In this document: piece by piece, positions 3,288 to 57,504 of the stretch
Numbering within the stretch: the stretch's first letter is position 1
Layout: every line of letters starts with the position of its first letter
Sequence record: NC_031047.1
From: Escherichia phage HY03
DNA length: 64,000 nt
Reading direction: 5' to 3' (one strand)
Notes under the pieces: generated by a model
What the model was told of the DNA's origin: nothing
Seen by the model: the letters and a program-made list of their open reading frames with translations, nothing else
The model's database searches: none
Made by a program: the position numbers and the translations under genes

Positions 3288-3310
3288 AGTCTCCTTCGGG
3301 AGACTTTTTT
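3288..3310 (+). terminator. rho-independent terminator
   Basis: AGTCTCC-TTCG-GGAGACT hairpin followed by T6. Confidence 0.8.
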
Positions 3311-3320
3311 CATTTTACCG

Positions 3321-3350
3321 GTTTACTTTCCGTTTGAGCTGTGGTACTAT
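3321..3350 (+). promoter_or_regulatory. T4 early promoter
   Basis: GTTTAC, 18-nt spacer, TACTAT; conserved TGGTACTATACAACTATC segment. Confidence 0.75.
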
Positions 3351-3772: not shown

Positions 3773-3973
3773 ATGTTAACACGTGAACAGTTTGAAAAAA
3801 TCATTAAATTAGCACGTGATGTTGAAATAGATTCATACCAATTGGCAGTTGAGCATTGTGAAGGATATTCATACGACGGTATAGAAGCAGCTAAAAAGGA
3901 TTTGGATAAATCTAAAGCTAAGTTAGTTCAATATCTTGAAATGATTAGGTGGAATAATGAAAACTGTAGTTAA
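3773..3973 (+). CDS. hypothetical protein
   Basis: 66-aa ORF. Confidence 0.5.
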   Translation: MLTREQFEKIIKLARDVEIDSYQLAVEHCEGYSYDGIEAAKKDLDKSKAKLVQYLEMIRWNNENCS

Positions 3974-4967
3974 GTCTTATTTTGGTAGTCATCTTTATGG
4001 AACTTCTACTCCAGAATCTGATGTAGATTTTAAAGAAATCTTTGTTCCTCCTGCTCGTGATATTCTTATCGGAAATGTTAAAGAGCATATGAGTAAAAAC
4101 ACTAACAACACATCATCTAAAAACACCAAAGATGATATTGACCATGAACTATACAGTCTTAAATATTTCTTTAAATTAGCAGCAGATGGTGAAACTGTAG
4201 CATTGGATATGCTCCACACTCCACCTGAACTGGTAGTTAAATCTGATTTGCCTGATGTATGGAAGTTTATTCAAGACAATCGTTCTCGTTTTTATACGAC
4301 TAACATGAAATCCTATTTAGGATATGTTCGCAAGCAAGCTTCTAAATACGGTGTTAAGGGTTCTCGTTTGGCCGCATTACGTGATGTATTGAAAGTAGTT
4401 AATCAAATCCCCGATCAGTGGGTTGATTATCAAGAAGGAATCCCTGATAGACTTCGTCGTACTAAGGTAGAAGATATCAAACACAGACTCCCTGAAAACG
4501 AATTCTGTGAATGGGTGTTCCATAATCATGAGAAAACAGGCCCACAGACGTTTTACACAGTGTTGGGTCGTAAATATCAGACAACTCTTTCTCTTATTGA
4601 GCTTAAGCAGTCACTGAATAAATTAGATGCTGAATACGGTGAACGCGCTCGTAAGGCCGAAGCCAATGAAGGCATTGACTGGAAAGCTCTGAGTCATGCT
4701 TGTCGTGGTGGACTCCAACTATTGGAAATTTACAAAACTGGTGACTTGGTTTATCCACTTCAAGACGCTCCATTTATTCTCGACGTGAAGTTGGGTAAAC
4801 ATCCATTTAAAACCGTTCAAGAGTTTTTGGAAGATGTGGTCGATCAAGTAGAAGCAGCATCTACTGAAGCTTCTAAGAACGGTATGCCTAAAACAGTAGA
4901 CATGAGTTTCTGGGATGACTTCCTTGAGAAGGTCTATCTTGAAAACCACCGAAGTTATTATAAATGA
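3957..4967 (+). CDS. nucleotidyltransferase-fold protein (Pol-beta superfamily motif)
   Basis: 336 aa; N-terminal GSHLYGTSTPESDVDF matches the G[GS]x(9-13)DxD nucleotidyltransferase signature; AGGTGG RBS. Confidence 0.6.
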   Translation: MKTVVKSYFGSHLYGTSTPESDVDFKEIFVPPARDILIGNVKEHMSKNTNNTSSKNTKDDIDHELYSLKYFFKLAADGETVALDMLHTPPELVVKSDLPDVWKFIQDNRSRFYTTNMKSYLGYVRKQASKYGVKGSRLAALRDVLKVVNQIPDQWVDYQEGIPDRLRRTKVEDIKHRLPENEFCEWVFHNHEKTGPQTFYTVLGRKYQTTLSLIELKQSLNKLDAEYGERARKAEANEGIDWKALSHACRGGLQLLEIYKTGDLVYPLQDAPFILDVKLGKHPFKTVQEFLEDVVDQVEAASTEASKNGMPKTVDMSFWDDFLEKVYLENHRSYYK

Positions 4968-4969
4968 TA

Positions 4970-4993
4970 GGGAGCCTTCGGGCTCCCTTTTTT
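4970..4993 (+). terminator. rho-independent terminator
   Basis: GGGAGCC-TTCG-GGCTCCC hairpin plus T6. Confidence 0.8.
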
Positions 4994-5018
4994 ATTTCAA
5001 AAATTTTTTCACAAAGTG

Positions 5019-5048
5019 GTTTACAAGCATAAAGCTTTATGGTACTAT
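5019..5048 (+). promoter_or_regulatory. T4 early promoter with A/T-rich UP region
   Basis: AAAATTTTTTCACAAAG upstream; GTTTAC, 18-nt spacer, TACTAT. Confidence 0.75.
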
Positions 5049-5084: not shown

Positions 5085-5234
5085 ATGAAAATTACACCAA
5101 TTGAAGTAAAAAAGTTGATTGACACAGAAGAAATTTCAGAGTGTTTTGAAAGTTTCTTAGAAGATGCAACTGAAGATAATGCAGTTTATCTCGCTCAGAA
5201 AATTATCGAAACTTATTTGGAGAAGAATCAATGA
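5085..5234 (+). CDS. hypothetical small protein
   Basis: 49 aa, below the ORF-track cutoff; ATGA overlap with next gene. Confidence 0.4.
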   Translation: MKITPIEVKKLIDTEEISECFESFLEDATEDNAVYLAQKIIETYLEKNQ

Positions 5235-5494
5235 CAGTTTACGTAGATGTTTTAATGAATCATGGATGGAAACTTCGCGGTCATCCAACTAAAAATTGTC
5301 ATATGTTCACTGATGGAGATATTGAAGAGCTTCACGAAATGGCAGAAGCAATAGGAATGAAACGTTCTTGGTTTCAAGATAAACGCATTAAACATTATGA
5401 CTTACACGCTCGGCGACGCCAAAAAGCTGTAGAACTTGGAGCTGTAGAAGTATCTCGTCGCGAAGCAGTAAAAATTTGGCAAACATTAAAATAA
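5231..5494 (+). CDS. hypothetical protein, DUF4031-like
   Basis: 87 aa; MTVYVD...HMF...LH..A..IG pattern recalled for DUF4031. Confidence 0.5.
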   Translation: MTVYVDVLMNHGWKLRGHPTKNCHMFTDGDIEELHEMAEAIGMKRSWFQDKRIKHYDLHARRRQKAVELGAVEVSRREAVKIWQTLK

Positions 5495-5563
5495 ATTGTT
5501 TACAGCAGGGTAGTAGTGTGATACTATTACCCTATCAAAACAAATGTAAAATTGGAGAATAAA

Positions 5564-6532
5564 ATGAAAACTGTAACTATCAATAAGGGTATCTACTTTG
5601 GTAAAGAAATCTCTGGAACTTTTGAGCTCTTAGGTGAATGGTTCCCAGATAATGCTCCGGTAGATGCACAAGGAGATGGTAAAGTTTTTGTTGAAATTGA
5701 CGGTAAACGTCGCGGTGTTTGGGTTTACAAATCAGACATTTCATATGATGGTGTAAAAGTTGAAGAAGTTAAAGAATCATATGAAGATATGAAAACCCGC
5801 ATTAATAAAAGATTTAATGTTATGGGAATGATGACGAATGGTATTATTAACGGAAACATTCGTTCATTAATTATCTCTGGTGCGGCGGGTATTGGTAAAA
5901 CGTATTCTTTAGATAAAGCTTTAAATAAAGCAAATGATAATGGATACATTGAATATAAAAGCATTAACGGTAAAATCTCTGGTATCGGTCTTTATGAACA
6001 GCTCTGGAATAATCGTGAAGAGAATTCTGTCCTTTTGATTGATGATGTGGATGTTTTCTCTGATATGGACATTCTTAATCTTCTGAAAGCTGCTCTGGAC
6101 ACTGGAGAGACCCGTAAAGTCTGCTGGAGCACCGCATCTTCTTACTTAGAAGAAAAAGGCATTGAGCGTGAGTTTGAATTTAAAGGAACGATTGTTTTTA
6201 TCACAAACGTTGACATTGACCGCGAATTAGACCGTGGTACTAAACTTGCTCCACATTTACAAGCATTAGTGTCCCGCTCAGTTTATTTAGATTTGGGTGT
6301 TCACACTAATGAAGAAATTATGGTCAGGGTTGAAGATGTTATTCTTTCAACCGACATGATGCAAAAGCGTGGTCTTTCTGATGAAGAAACTTATAAAGCA
6401 TTATCATGGATGAAAGTCAATGTTAACCGTTTACGTAATGTTTCACTGCGTACTGCACTTTATCTTGCTGACTTTATTATGACCGACAAAAACGGTTGGG
6501 AAGAAATTGCTGAGGTTACTCTTCTGAAATAA
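5564..6532 (+). CDS. AAA-type ATPase
   Basis: in-frame ATG of track ORF 5552..6532; Walker A GAAGIGKT and Walker B VLLIDDVD. Confidence 0.7.
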   Translation: MKTVTINKGIYFGKEISGTFELLGEWFPDNAPVDAQGDGKVFVEIDGKRRGVWVYKSDISYDGVKVEEVKESYEDMKTRINKRFNVMGMMTNGIINGNIRSLIISGAAGIGKTYSLDKALNKANDNGYIEYKSINGKISGIGLYEQLWNNREENSVLLIDDVDVFSDMDILNLLKAALDTGETRKVCWSTASSYLEEKGIEREFEFKGTIVFITNVDIDRELDRGTKLAPHLQALVSRSVYLDLGVHTNEEIMVRVEDVILSTDMMQKRGLSDEETYKALSWMKVNVNRLRNVSLRTALYLADFIMTDKNGWEEIAEVTLLK

Positions 6533-11440: not shown

Positions 11441-11704
11441 ATGTTTAAAGTATATGGTTATGATAGCAACATTCATAAATGCGTGTATTGCGATAATGCA
11501 AAACGTCTTTTGACCGTGAAGAAACAGCCGTTTGAATTTATCAACATTATGCCGGAAAAAGGTGTTTTTGATGATGAGAAAATTGCTGAGCTTCTGACTA
11601 AACTAGGTCGTGATACTCAAATCGGCTTGACAATGCCTCAGGTATTTGCTCCTGATGGAAGTCATATTGGTGGATTTGACCAATTGCGGGAATACTTTAA
11701 ATGA
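11441..11704 (+). CDS. nrdC: glutaredoxin (phage thioredoxin)
   Basis: 87 aa; CVYC active site; matches recalled T4 NrdC. Confidence 0.9.
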   Translation: MFKVYGYDSNIHKCVYCDNAKRLLTVKKQPFEFINIMPEKGVFDDEKIAELLTKLGRDTQIGLTMPQVFAPDGSHIGGFDQLREYFK

Positions 11705-55157: not shown

Positions 55158-56708
55158 ATGATTAAGAATGAAATTAAAATTCTGAGCGATATTGAACATA
55201 TCAAAAAGCGTAGCGGCATGTACATTGGCTCTTCTGCTAATGAAATGCATGAGCGCTTTCTGTTTGGTAAATGGGAAAGTGTTCAGTATGTACCTGGTCT
55301 TGTTAAGCTTATTGATGAAATTATCGATAACTCAGTAGATGAAGGTATTCGTACTAAGTTTAAATTCGCAAATAAAATTAATGTTACTATTAAAAACAAT
55401 CAAGTAACAGTTGAAGATAACGGTCGCGGTATTCCACAGGCGATGGTTAAAACACCTACCGGTGAAGAAATTCCTGGTCCTGTTGCTGCGTGGACTATTC
55501 CAAAAGCAGGTGGTAACTTCGGTGATGATAAAGAACGCGTCACTGGCGGTATGAATGGTGTTGGTTCTAGTTTGACAAACATTTTTTCTGTGATGTTTGT
55601 CGGTGAAACTGGTGATGGTCAAAATAATATTGTAGTTCGTTGTTCAAATGGCATGGAAAATAAATCATGGGAAGATATTCCCGGAAAATGGAAAGGAACT
55701 CGTGTTACTTTCATTCCTGATTTTATGTCATTTGAAACTAATGAGTTGTCCCAAGTTTATCTTGACATTACATTAGATCGTCTCCAGACACTTGCTGTTG
55801 TTTATCCTGATATTCAATTTACCTTTAATGGTAAAAAGGTTCAGGGCAATTTTAAGAAATATGCACGCCAATATGATGAACATGCTATCGTTCAAGAACA
55901 AGAAAATTGTTCTATTGCGGTCGGTCGTTCACCGGATGGTTTTCGTCAATTAACATACGTCAATAACATTCACACTAAGAATGGTGGTCATCACATTGAC
56001 TGTGTTATGGATGATATTTGTGAAGACCTTATTCCACAAATCAAACGTAAGTTCAAAATTGATGTAACTAAAGCACGTGTCAAAGAATGTTTGACTATCG
56101 TTATGTTTGTTCGTGATATGAAAAACATGCGATTTGATTCTCAAACTAAAGAACGACTTACTTCTCCTTTTGGTGAAATTCGTAGTCATATTCAACTTGA
56201 TGCTAAAAAGATTTCACGTGCTATTTTAAATAATGAAGCAATTTTAATGCCGATTATTGAAGCTGCTTTGGCTCGTAAATTGGCGGCAGAAAAAGCAGCA
56301 GAAACTAAAGCAGCTAAAAAGGCTTCTAAAGCTAAGGTTCATAAACATATTAAAGCGAATCTTTGCGGTAAAGATGCTGACACTACTCTTTTCTTGACTG
56401 AGGGTGATTCGGCTATCGGATATCTTATTGATGTTCGTGATAAAGAACTTCACGGCGGTTATCCATTGCGTGGTAAAGTTCTTAATAGCTGGGGTATGTC
56501 ATATGCTGATATGCTTAAAAACAAAGAACTATTTGATATTTGCGCAATCACTGGATTAGTTCTTGGTGAAAAAGCGTTTGAAGAAAAAGAAGACGGTGAG
56601 TGGTTTACTCTCGAACTAAATGGTGATACAATTATTGTAAATGAAAATGATGAAGTACAGATTAATGGTAAATGGATAACAGTAGGTGAATTACGAAAAA
56701 ATCTATAA
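55158..56708 (+). CDS. 39: DNA topoisomerase II large subunit gp39 (ATPase plus Toprim N-part)
   Basis: 516 aa; GHKL ATPase motifs; matches T4 gp39. Confidence 0.9.
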   Translation: MIKNEIKILSDIEHIKKRSGMYIGSSANEMHERFLFGKWESVQYVPGLVKLIDEIIDNSVDEGIRTKFKFANKINVTIKNNQVTVEDNGRGIPQAMVKTPTGEEIPGPVAAWTIPKAGGNFGDDKERVTGGMNGVGSSLTNIFSVMFVGETGDGQNNIVVRCSNGMENKSWEDIPGKWKGTRVTFIPDFMSFETNELSQVYLDITLDRLQTLAVVYPDIQFTFNGKKVQGNFKKYARQYDEHAIVQEQENCSIAVGRSPDGFRQLTYVNNIHTKNGGHHIDCVMDDICEDLIPQIKRKFKIDVTKARVKECLTIVMFVRDMKNMRFDSQTKERLTSPFGEIRSHIQLDAKKISRAILNNEAILMPIIEAALARKLAAEKAAETKAAKKASKAKVHKHIKANLCGKDADTTLFLTEGDSAIGYLIDVRDKELHGGYPLRGKVLNSWGMSYADMLKNKELFDICAITGLVLGEKAFEEKEDGEWFTLELNGDTIIVNENDEVQINGKWITVGELRKNL

Positions 56709-57504
56709 TGACTTAATAGCGCGGGGTAAAACTCGCGTTTCTAAATTTAAAGGTGAAATTCACCATATCCTTCCAAGATCAATGGGAGGTTCTGATGATA
56801 AAGAAAATTTGGTAAAACTGACTTTTCGTGAACACTTTTTAGCACATTTTCTACTATATAAAATTCATCGTAATCGTGAAATGGCATATGCGATGAATAG
56901 AATGTTAAACACTGAAAAATATTTACGTTCTAGTAAATTATATGAAATTGCTAGAATTTACCATCAAAGAGCAGTATCTGAATGGTCAAAAAACTTTATG
57001 AAAGATAAAGTTTTAATGAGAAGTATTAAATCGGGTAAATGCGCCTTATTAATTAAAGGATCATTTAACCCAAAGGAATGGTGCGGTGTTAATAAAGGTG
57101 TTAAGCTTCCTGGAATTAAAGGCATGACATGCTTTAAAAATGAAAAAGGCGAAGTTTTTCGTCTTCATGTTAATGATCCACGCATTAAAGCTGAAAAATT
57201 AGTTGGTATTGGAAATACTGTTGCTGCTACTGCAAAAGCAGCTGAACTTGAAAAAGCGAAACCATGGTATAATAAATCAGCGACAAATCCAGAGGCTGTA
57301 AAATTAATACCAAATTTATATGAATGGTACGTCACGAAATATGACCCCGATCATTATAAACGAACGGGAGTTGCTAAATGGAAATCAGTTAATAATATAA
57401 CTGTGAATTCAAAATTATTCGGCCGAGCATTTAATGAATTTAAACGCGGCTGGATTCCTGATGAAAAGTTCTACGAGGTGTATAATGAAATTTGTAAAAA
57501 TTGA
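56686..57504 (+). CDS. mobA: HNH homing endonuclease
   Basis: HNH motif EIHHILPRSMGGSDDKENLVKLTFREHFLAH; inserted between 39 and 60; start (GTG 56686) uncertain. Confidence 0.65.
   Translation: MNYEKIYNDLIARGKTRVSKFKGEIHHILPRSMGGSDDKENLVKLTFREHFLAHFLLYKIHRNREMAYAMNRMLNTEKYLRSSKLYEIARIYHQRAVSEWSKNFMKDKVLMRSIKSGKCALLIKGSFNPKEWCGVNKGVKLPGIKGMTCFKNEKGEVFRLHVNDPRIKAEKLVGIGNTVAATAKAAELEKAKPWYNKSATNPEAVKLIPNLYEWYVTKYDPDHYKRTGVAKWKSVNNITVNSKLFGRAFNEFKRGWIPDEKFYEVYNEICKN

Follow-up and report, generated by a model that had tools for sequence, protein, structure and literature searches.

NrdC.11 of Escherichia phage HY03, a predicted RlaP-family nucleotidyltransferase with a possible part in tRNA break repair

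The nrdC.11 gene and its locus

The analysed window is a stretch of 64,000 nucleotides from Escherichia phage HY03 (NC_031047.1), a Tequatrovirus (T4-like) genome, which runs in the direction opposite to the T4 map. The open reading frame (ORF) studied here occupies 3957..4967 on the + strand and encodes 336 amino acids (aa) plus the stop codon. It is a genuine ORF, far beyond chance, and the opposite strand contains many stops and cannot be read through. This ORF is orthologous to T4 nrdC.11: its product is 96% identical to T4 NrdC.11 (NP_049709.1) across all 336 residues, and a 100% identical protein in the same local gene order was found in phage ELT1. By its sequence the product is assigned to the RlaP family (PF10127) of nucleotidyltransferases (NTases), as the NrdC.11 subtype. 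A Shine-Dalgarno-like AGGTGG (3947..3952, + strand) is located 4 nt before the ATG, and the start of the gene overlaps the 3' end of mobD.3 (3773-3973) by 17 nt. The T4 gene has the same length, the same upstream overlap of 17 nt and the same position in the block from rI to nrdC.

The gene and the family are already known and the window holds one more nrdC.11 copy, without the mobD insertion. With megablast, nrdC.11 was detected in 676 phage records, and with tblastn the protein was found in 1517 cultured-phage records, mainly of Straboviridae. The family was determined to comprise 3486 cluster representatives (50% identity clustering, E<=1e-3), of full length in the majority of cases; at E<=1e-30 the number of representatives was 835, again mostly full length. 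PHROG 388 'nucleotidyltransferase' matches NrdC.11 from end to end (E=1.8e-136), and the T4 RefSeq product name is also 'nucleotidyltransferase', with the protein record NP_049709.1 titled 'uncharacterized 38.9 kDa protein'. The orthologs were matched to the COG3541 nucleotidyltransferase by Nolan et al. 2006 (PMC1524935). The NCBIfam profile search resulted in no match to NrdC.11, the Rfam search of the window gave no match, and sequence searches of the PDB with the single protein and with the family profile returned nothing relevant.

In many GenBank records the gene carries a thioredoxin or glutaredoxin label. This label was rejected, as no such Pfam match was obtained and the model has the NTase fold; the 'thioredoxin' label derives from the gene name. 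The genes nrdC.10 to nrdC.7 of ELT1 are likewise labelled 'thioredoxin', in some records nrdC.11 is called a 'putative HNH homing endonuclease', and the T4 RefSeq name of mobD.4 is 'molybdopterin-guanine dinucleotide biosynthesis protein MobD'. All these labels look as if they were propagated from gene names and not from homology.

The gene order in the window is vs.1 (by the T4 map order), vs, tk.4, tk (1758-2339), rI (2607-2900), rI.-1, mobD.5, mobD.4, mobD.3, nrdC.11 and nrdC.10 (5552-6532), with nrdC (11441-11701) further on. The position between rI and nrdC, given already in the first-pass annotation of the window, is thus backed by T4 synteny. The same annotation placed the ORF roughly where T4 mobD lies, which is off by one gene. 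In T4, mobD is a free-standing HNH endonuclease gene inserted between nrdC.11 and mobD.1 (PMC2988022), that is, immediately upstream of nrdC.11. The T4 genes mobD, mobD.1, mobD.2 and mobD.2a are absent from the HY03 window, and therefore nrdC.11 directly follows mobD.3. An identity of the ORF with the MobD endonuclease was also rejected: no HNH Pfam match was found, and T4 MobD finds nothing at 3957-4967 and matches only 56686-56874 in the window. The latter match belongs to a mobD-like HNH ORF at 56686-57504, the first 68 residues of which are 57% identical to T4 MobD. The T4 genes nrdC.4, 49.2 and 49.3 are absent as well, and in the case of nrdC.5 only the C-terminal part finds a match. Two transcription units upstream of nrdC.11 lies Tk.4 (890-1357), 98% identical to T4 Tk.4, for which an A1pp (macro) phosphatase motif is given in the annotation; domains of this type occur also in RNA-end and ADP-ribose processing.

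A T4 early-promoter-like site was read from the sequence at 3322..3350 (+ strand) as a consensus match consisting of TTTACT, a 17-nt spacer and TACTAT, with a terminator hairpin (3288-3305) just ahead of it. The site probably drives a unit of mobD.5, mobD.4, mobD.3 and nrdC.11. An intrinsic-terminator-like hairpin at 4969..4997 on the + strand (stem-loop at 4969-4988 followed by a T run; 8 bp stem with 6 G-C pairs, UUCG loop) stands directly after the nrdC.11 stop, with an RNA folding energy of -17.7 kcal/mol and a z of -3.9 versus shuffled sequences. Judged by these predicted signals, nrdC.11 is the last gene of a short unit closed by this terminator.

Three further early-promoter-like sites, TTTACA-17-TACTAT, were detected in the scan at 5020, 5499 and 6941, with the same architecture as that of 3322-3350. 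The first of them (5020-5048) would serve an ORF of 49 aa (5085-5234) and a DUF4031 ORF (5231-5494; PF13223 at E=1e-21), both absent from T4, where nothing of this kind stands between nrdC.11 and nrdC.10. The second (5499-5527) would serve nrdC.10. A DUF4031-like ORF and an AAA ATPase had been reported downstream in the first-pass annotation. The former was confirmed, whereas the P-loop/AAA matches of the NrdC.10 ORF all remained under the Pfam gathering scores. As a functional context for nrdC.11, the two were not retained. The terminator and the own early promoters place them in separate units, and conserved linkage is confined to the close relatives of T4, therefore they are not considered partners. 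Of the 78 viral loci only 9 had the cassette of the 49-aa and DUF4031 ORFs, and its place differed among them; it was present in none of 80 bacterial loci. The cassette has the appearance of a mobile or optional set of early genes. NrdC.10 adjoins nrdC.11 only in T4-like phages (0/80 bacterial loci).

Family assignment, catalytic residues and fold

NrdC.11 residues 7-135 matched PF10127 with 43.6 bits against the gathering cutoff of 23 (E=3.9e-11), and the same family scored above its gathering score in 43 of 43 diverse relatives. PF10127 had been one of the candidate families of the first-pass annotation and is the one which was borne out by the searches. The CD-NTase and MNT families, suggested in parallel, were not: PF01909 (NTP_transf_2) reached 13.7 bits with a cutoff of 21 and was rejected as sub-threshold, and NrdC.11 had no match in PADLOC-DB at E<=0.01.

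The ORF product opens with the NTase signature GSHLYGTSTPESDVDF at residues 10-25, as had been proposed, and the catalytic motif is invariant. Conservation was determined with 43 NrdC.11 relatives of 34-54% identity. The invariant positions were G10, S11, G15, S21, D22, D24, N56, D62, Y131, R230, K243, H247, R250 and P267. Exactly three aspartates (D22, D24 and D62) are among them, which equals the number described for RlaP. In the hhalign alignment to canonical RlaP, G10-S11 corresponds to G37-S38, and D22, D24 and D62 correspond to D49, D51 and D88, respectively. The GS, DxD and D62 residues are also kept across the phage clade and in those RNA-repair-linked relatives which were aligned. On the + strand, the codons of the catalytic motif are located at 3984-3989 (G10-S11), 4020-4022 (D22) and 4026-4028 (D24). 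D62 (4140-4142) is, by its invariance and its alignment with D88, the probable third carboxylate. One bacterial NrdC.11-type protein (L101:10001-10972) has Asn at the D22 position, yet RtcB and HD_4 genes lie nearby.

The structure of NrdC.11 was modelled with AlphaFold2 (AF2) using an alignment of 60 sequences, with a predicted local distance difference test (pLDDT) value of 88.2 and a predicted template modelling (pTM) value of 0.72. The modelled order is an N-terminal alpha/beta NTase core, helices, a beta-rich part at approximately 154-208 with five strands and a C-terminal helical bundle, with a long final helix at 316-335. The Pol-beta NTase core (3957..4241, + strand) covers residues 1 to ~95, with the AF2 strands at 2-9, 23-30, 44-48 and 61-67. 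The C-terminal helical bundle (4620..4964, + strand; residues 222-336) is HEPN/KNTase_C-like and contains the invariant R230, K243, H247, R250 and P267. The predicted architecture is that of a Pol-beta NTase with a HEPN-like helical domain and an inserted beta-rich segment. The second domain had been described as largely helical, which holds for the helical part, whereas the five-strand beta subdomain lies inside it. The R-x4-6-H nuclease motif is not present in NrdC.11. Foldseek searches of the PDB resulted in nothing at E<=1e-3; all the meaningful fold matches of the model were NTases, in agreement with the initial proposal of a Pol-beta-type enzyme.

The subtype-specific insertion (4365..4619, + strand; residues 137-221) starts with a helix, continues with five beta strands and a short helix and ends in the first part of a long helix. 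Neither the PF10127 profile nor canonical RlaP has these ~85 residues. In intact NrdC.11 the PF10127 match ends at residue 135; when residues 137-221 were removed in silico, it extended to profile position 175, increased to 50.1 bits and took in the DWKALSHACR motif. The insert modelled alone with AF2 had a pLDDT of 93.4. Its length in the aligned NrdC.11-type relatives is 64-87 residues versus 18 aligned residues in canonical RlaPs of ~270 aa. With this beta-rich insert, the NrdC.11 type forms a subfamily of its own within RlaP.

The canonical RlaPs of P. fluorescens and P. aeruginosa, encoded in rtcB-rlaP-rtcA operons (PMC12776372), share with NrdC.11 the Pfam family, the set of GS, DxD and third Asp, the arrangement, predicted for NrdC.11, of an NTase and a C-terminal helical domain, the helical K-x3-[HY]-x2-R motif and, in the case of the relatives of the NrdC.11 subtype, the occurrence in RNA-repair operons. 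Owing to the beta-rich insert, NrdC.11 exceeds the ~270-aa canonical proteins by ~65 residues, and it has H247 where these have Y. The plan of a Pol-beta NTase with a HEPN-like four-helix bundle is shared also with the kanamycin nucleotidyltransferase ANT(4') and the MNT-HEPN modules, the substrates of which are aminoglycosides or HEPN proteins; NrdC.11, in contrast, has no toxin partner. The CCA-adding enzymes and the terminal uridylyltransferases Cid1 and TUT7 add nucleotides to an RNA 3'-OH without a template by a Pol-beta NTase, as the RlaPs do. However, the Foldseek matches of NrdC.11 to enzymes of the Cid1/TUT7 type were weak and of low probability, and compared with the CCA-adding enzymes NrdC.11 is without the head-neck-body-tail architecture and the RlaP family without base specificity.

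Gene neighbourhoods of NrdC.11 relatives

The gene neighbourhoods were studied with a sample of 78 viral and 80 genome loci encoding NrdC.11 relatives. The ORFs were called and clustered, the recurrent neighbours were annotated with Pfam, and all six frames were scanned with hidden Markov models. The relatives in the genome loci were 32-54% identical to NrdC.11 (tblastn), and those of the RNA-repair-linked ones which were aligned carry the insert.

Within 10 kb of the relatives in bacterial and archaeal loci (n=80), genes of RtcB, Pnkp, Ro60/TROVE, T4-like Pnk and RNA ligase were detected in 11, 6, 5, 3 and 2 cases, respectively. At least one RNA-repair gene was present at this distance in 18 of the 80 loci. 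By our estimate, which is not a measured control, a single-copy gene is expected in a given 20-kb window in well under 1% of cases. Among the approximately 27 distant viral loci, where the protein is <=50% identical, Pnk, Rnl1, Rnl2 or RtcB was found within 10 kb in 8, and on one metagenomic phage contig an RNA ligase is encoded 3.4 kb upstream of the NrdC.11 relative. In Nitrosospira (L120) the order is Ro60, RtcB, an unannotated ORF and the NrdC.11-type gene, with Pnkp ~5 kb further downstream. A metagenome-assembled genome of Chlamydiales (L164; 5975-12836) encodes, in this order, Hen1, Pnkp, the NrdC.11-type protein, canonical RlaP and an RNA ligase.

A canonical RlaP of ~270 aa is encoded immediately downstream on the same strand, often overlapping, in 23 of the 80 genome loci (L090, L092, L103, L106, L108, L113, L115, L116, L117, L120, L137, L139, L143, L145, L148, L149, L151, L152, L154, L157, L158, L163 and L164), compared with 0 of the 78 viral ones. 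Two of these canonical neighbours were tested with Pfam and matched PF10127 in full length with more than 220 bits. The tandem arrangement suggests that the two paralogs make up a module within RNA-repair operons. Natural fusions of the two types were not confirmed, the apparent cases being overlapping ORFs in different frames. In cultured phages canonical RlaP was found in 80 records, almost all of jumbo phages and none T4-like. The NrdC.11 type is thus a distinct RlaP paralog of RNA-repair gene sets, and T4-like phages carry this type alone.

Other neighbours were also observed to recur. In several loci, bacterial as well as viral (L078:9426-9995, L101:9549-9986, L155:9366-10004, L126, L132 and L134), the NrdC.11-type gene has an HD_4 (RelA/SpoT-type HD) phosphohydrolase gene as its direct neighbour, the product of which could be an end-healing partner supplying the 3'-OH. 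In distant T4-like viral contigs, a nicotinamide phosphoribosyltransferase gene, in some loci together with PRPP (phosphoribosyl pyrophosphate) synthetase, recurs 1.4-6.6 kb from the RlaP gene (L051, L054, L059-L061, L063, L066, L069, L072-L074 and L078). The proximity of these NAD-salvage genes probably reflects module synteny and not functional linkage. On one metagenomic phage contig (L006:6350-11698) an IS605 OrfB/TnpB gene, encoded on the other strand, comes after the RlaP gene, and a duplicated block of a DNMK-like protein, SSB and a 142-aa protein flanks the two.

A possible role in the repair of broken tRNAs

RNA repair was discovered in T4, where Pnk and Rnl1 counter the PrrC anticodon nuclease; the phage encodes Pnk, Rnl1 and Rnl2. 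According to a prediction of Iyer et al. 2021 (PMC7824862), RlaP replaces the nucleotides that RNA ends have lost, ahead of their ligation. Two Pseudomonas RlaPs were characterised by Carruthers, Fatma and Huang (bioRxiv, Dec 2025; PMC12776372) and add 1-2 nucleoside monophosphates to the RNA 3'-OH. These enzymes prefer Mn2+ and a broken-tRNA mimic, do not label DNA and protein, and take in vitro any nucleoside triphosphate (NTP) without base choice. The product bears a 3'-OH and is suited to 5'-phosphate ligases, and a tRNA with one nucleotide of the anticodon loop missing partly regained its aminoacylation. In the crystal structure of PfRlaP, an N-terminal NTase domain is followed by a C-terminal helical domain, the last helix of which packs back on the NTase domain. 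T4 NrdC.11 is marked in the same study as an RlaP member with function unknown and is found in cluster 5 of the sequence similarity network, whereas the characterised enzymes belong to cluster 1a (PMC12776372).

Taken with the neighbourhoods, we consider with a probability of about 0.6 that NrdC.11 acts as a template-independent RNA 3'-end nucleotidyltransferase which aids the repair of tRNA breaks by T4 Pnk and Rnl1. The RNA-repair context is favoured because the relatives lie in operons with RtcB, Ro60, Hen1-Pnkp and RNA ligase. RNA repair had been named in the first-pass annotation as one of three contexts of such enzymes; the other two, nucleotide signalling and toxin-antitoxin systems, found no support, with no match in PADLOC and a sub-threshold PF01909 score. 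That the enzyme acts on RNA, restores nucleotides and works together with Pnk and Rnl1 is what we infer from these comparisons, as is the function proposed for the insert. In the proposed mechanism, nrdC.11 would be expressed early, from the end of its short early transcription unit. T4 Pnk, a kinase and phosphatase, would act first and remove the 2',3'-cyclic phosphate. NrdC.11 would then restore the missing nucleotide between the end-healing by Pnk and the sealing by Rnl1, with G10-S11 and the carboxylates D22, D24 and D62 binding the NTP and two divalent metals, and with the beta insert of the subtype and the helical domain, which is positively charged, holding the RNA. T4 RNA ligase 1 would finally seal the break; the ends it joins must bear a 3'-OH and a 5'-phosphate. 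As the outcome, the phage would mend tRNAs from which an anticodon nuclease, e.g. RloC, has excised a nucleotide in addition to cutting them.

Several points weigh against this assignment. The characterised RlaPs are distant from NrdC.11: they belong to a different cluster, and only the first ~130 residues align. In T4-like phages nrdC.11 adjoins no RNA-repair gene: RNA ligase, Pnk, RtcB and a second RlaP were all absent from the 64-kb window, and in T4 the genes pseT and rnlA are ~79 kb and rnlB ~53 kb away from nrdC.11. The canonical RlaP partner of the bacterial pairs is also missing in T4-like phages, and the solo enzyme may behave differently. Since any NTP is added without base choice, true restoration would be inefficient. 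Finally, no T4-restricting, nucleotide-excising nuclease is known to be genetically linked to nrdC.11.

The solitary position of nrdC.11 in T4-like phages, far from the ligase and kinase genes, would also suit an enzyme which tails or CCA-mends intact RNAs, for instance by topping up the 3' ends of phage or host tRNAs or by tagging host RNAs during the takeover. The Pseudomonas RlaPs do use single-stranded RNA and, when given total E. coli RNA, also label species with the sizes of full-length tRNA and rRNA. However, they prefer the 3' end at the break of an annealed broken-tRNA mimic, with less activity on the acceptor-end strand, they are without the base specificity that CCA requires, and the same-subtype relatives of NrdC.11 are found in break-repair operons (RtcB, Hen1-Pnkp, Ro60, RNA ligase). 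Tailing is therefore regarded as unlikely. A nucleotidylyltransferase of proteins or small molecules which neutralises a host defence protein, comparable with the HEPN-AMPylating MNT antitoxins, DrrA and aminoglycoside NTases, is very unlikely. The fold scores which could point to such enzymes represent the generic similarity common to all Pol-beta NTases, PF01909 and PADLOC gave no significant match, E. coli proteins were not labelled by RlaPs, and the neighbourhoods indicate RNA repair and not toxin-antitoxin pairs. An inactive remnant with a purely structural or RNA-binding function could be imagined from the Asn at the D22 position of the bacterial L101 relative, but it is extremely improbable with GS, DxD and D62 invariant in the 43 relatives and the phage clade, the NrdC.11 ORF included.

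The synthesis of a nucleotide polymer or signal, such as the oligo-dA of HalB or the cyclic nucleotides of CD-NTases, serving as a decoy which holds a host effector off, was considered in view of the structural resemblance to HalB of the Hailong system (PDB 9dbh, 9dbj). HalB is a 217-aa enzyme which produces Tyr-primed poly-dA and is paired with the HalA channel. It shares 16% identity with NrdC.11, without a sequence-level relation, and such a relation to the defence NTases of PADLOC was likewise not found. The Foldseek E-values were only ~1e-2, RlaPs halt after 1-2 additions, and the relatives are found in RNA-repair operons. No HalA-like partner was detected at the flanks of nrdC.11 (the 66-aa mobD.3 and the 49-aa ORF) or among the clustered, annotated neighbour families, nor did a channel or effector partner recur among these families. 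Signal synthesis is thus highly unlikely. A related speculation takes the solo insert-bearing NrdC.11 not for a repair helper but for a counter-defence polymerase with HalB as the closest structural relative; by short oligonucleotides or by tags on host RNAs it would silence an immune effector of the host. We give this a very small chance. In a milder version, the beta insert could replace the canonical RlaP partner of bacteria, so that the lone phage enzyme restores the wobble nucleotide removed by nucleases of the RloC type.

Returning to the repair of broken tRNAs, nrdC.11 is dispensable in the laboratory: in a genome-reduction study the nrdC.11-mobD.3 fragment was lost (PMC9825161). The viable, genome-reduced T4 clone T4_7t1 (OL964745.1) has a deletion by which mobD.1 is fused with the final 39 codons of nrdC.11, so that mobD and nearly all of nrdC.11 are gone. 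Such dispensability is as expected for a counter-defence gene.

That NrdC.11 could contribute nucleotide restoration to tRNA repair in T4 is a hypothesis which the literature already contains. For specialists, the interest may lie in the subfamily with the beta insert, in its pairing with canonical RlaP in bacteria, and in its solo occurrence in T4-like phages with the canonical type in jumbo phages. If the proposed role is true, NrdC.11 would be the third component of T4 RNA repair, intended for tRNAs that have also lost a nucleotide.

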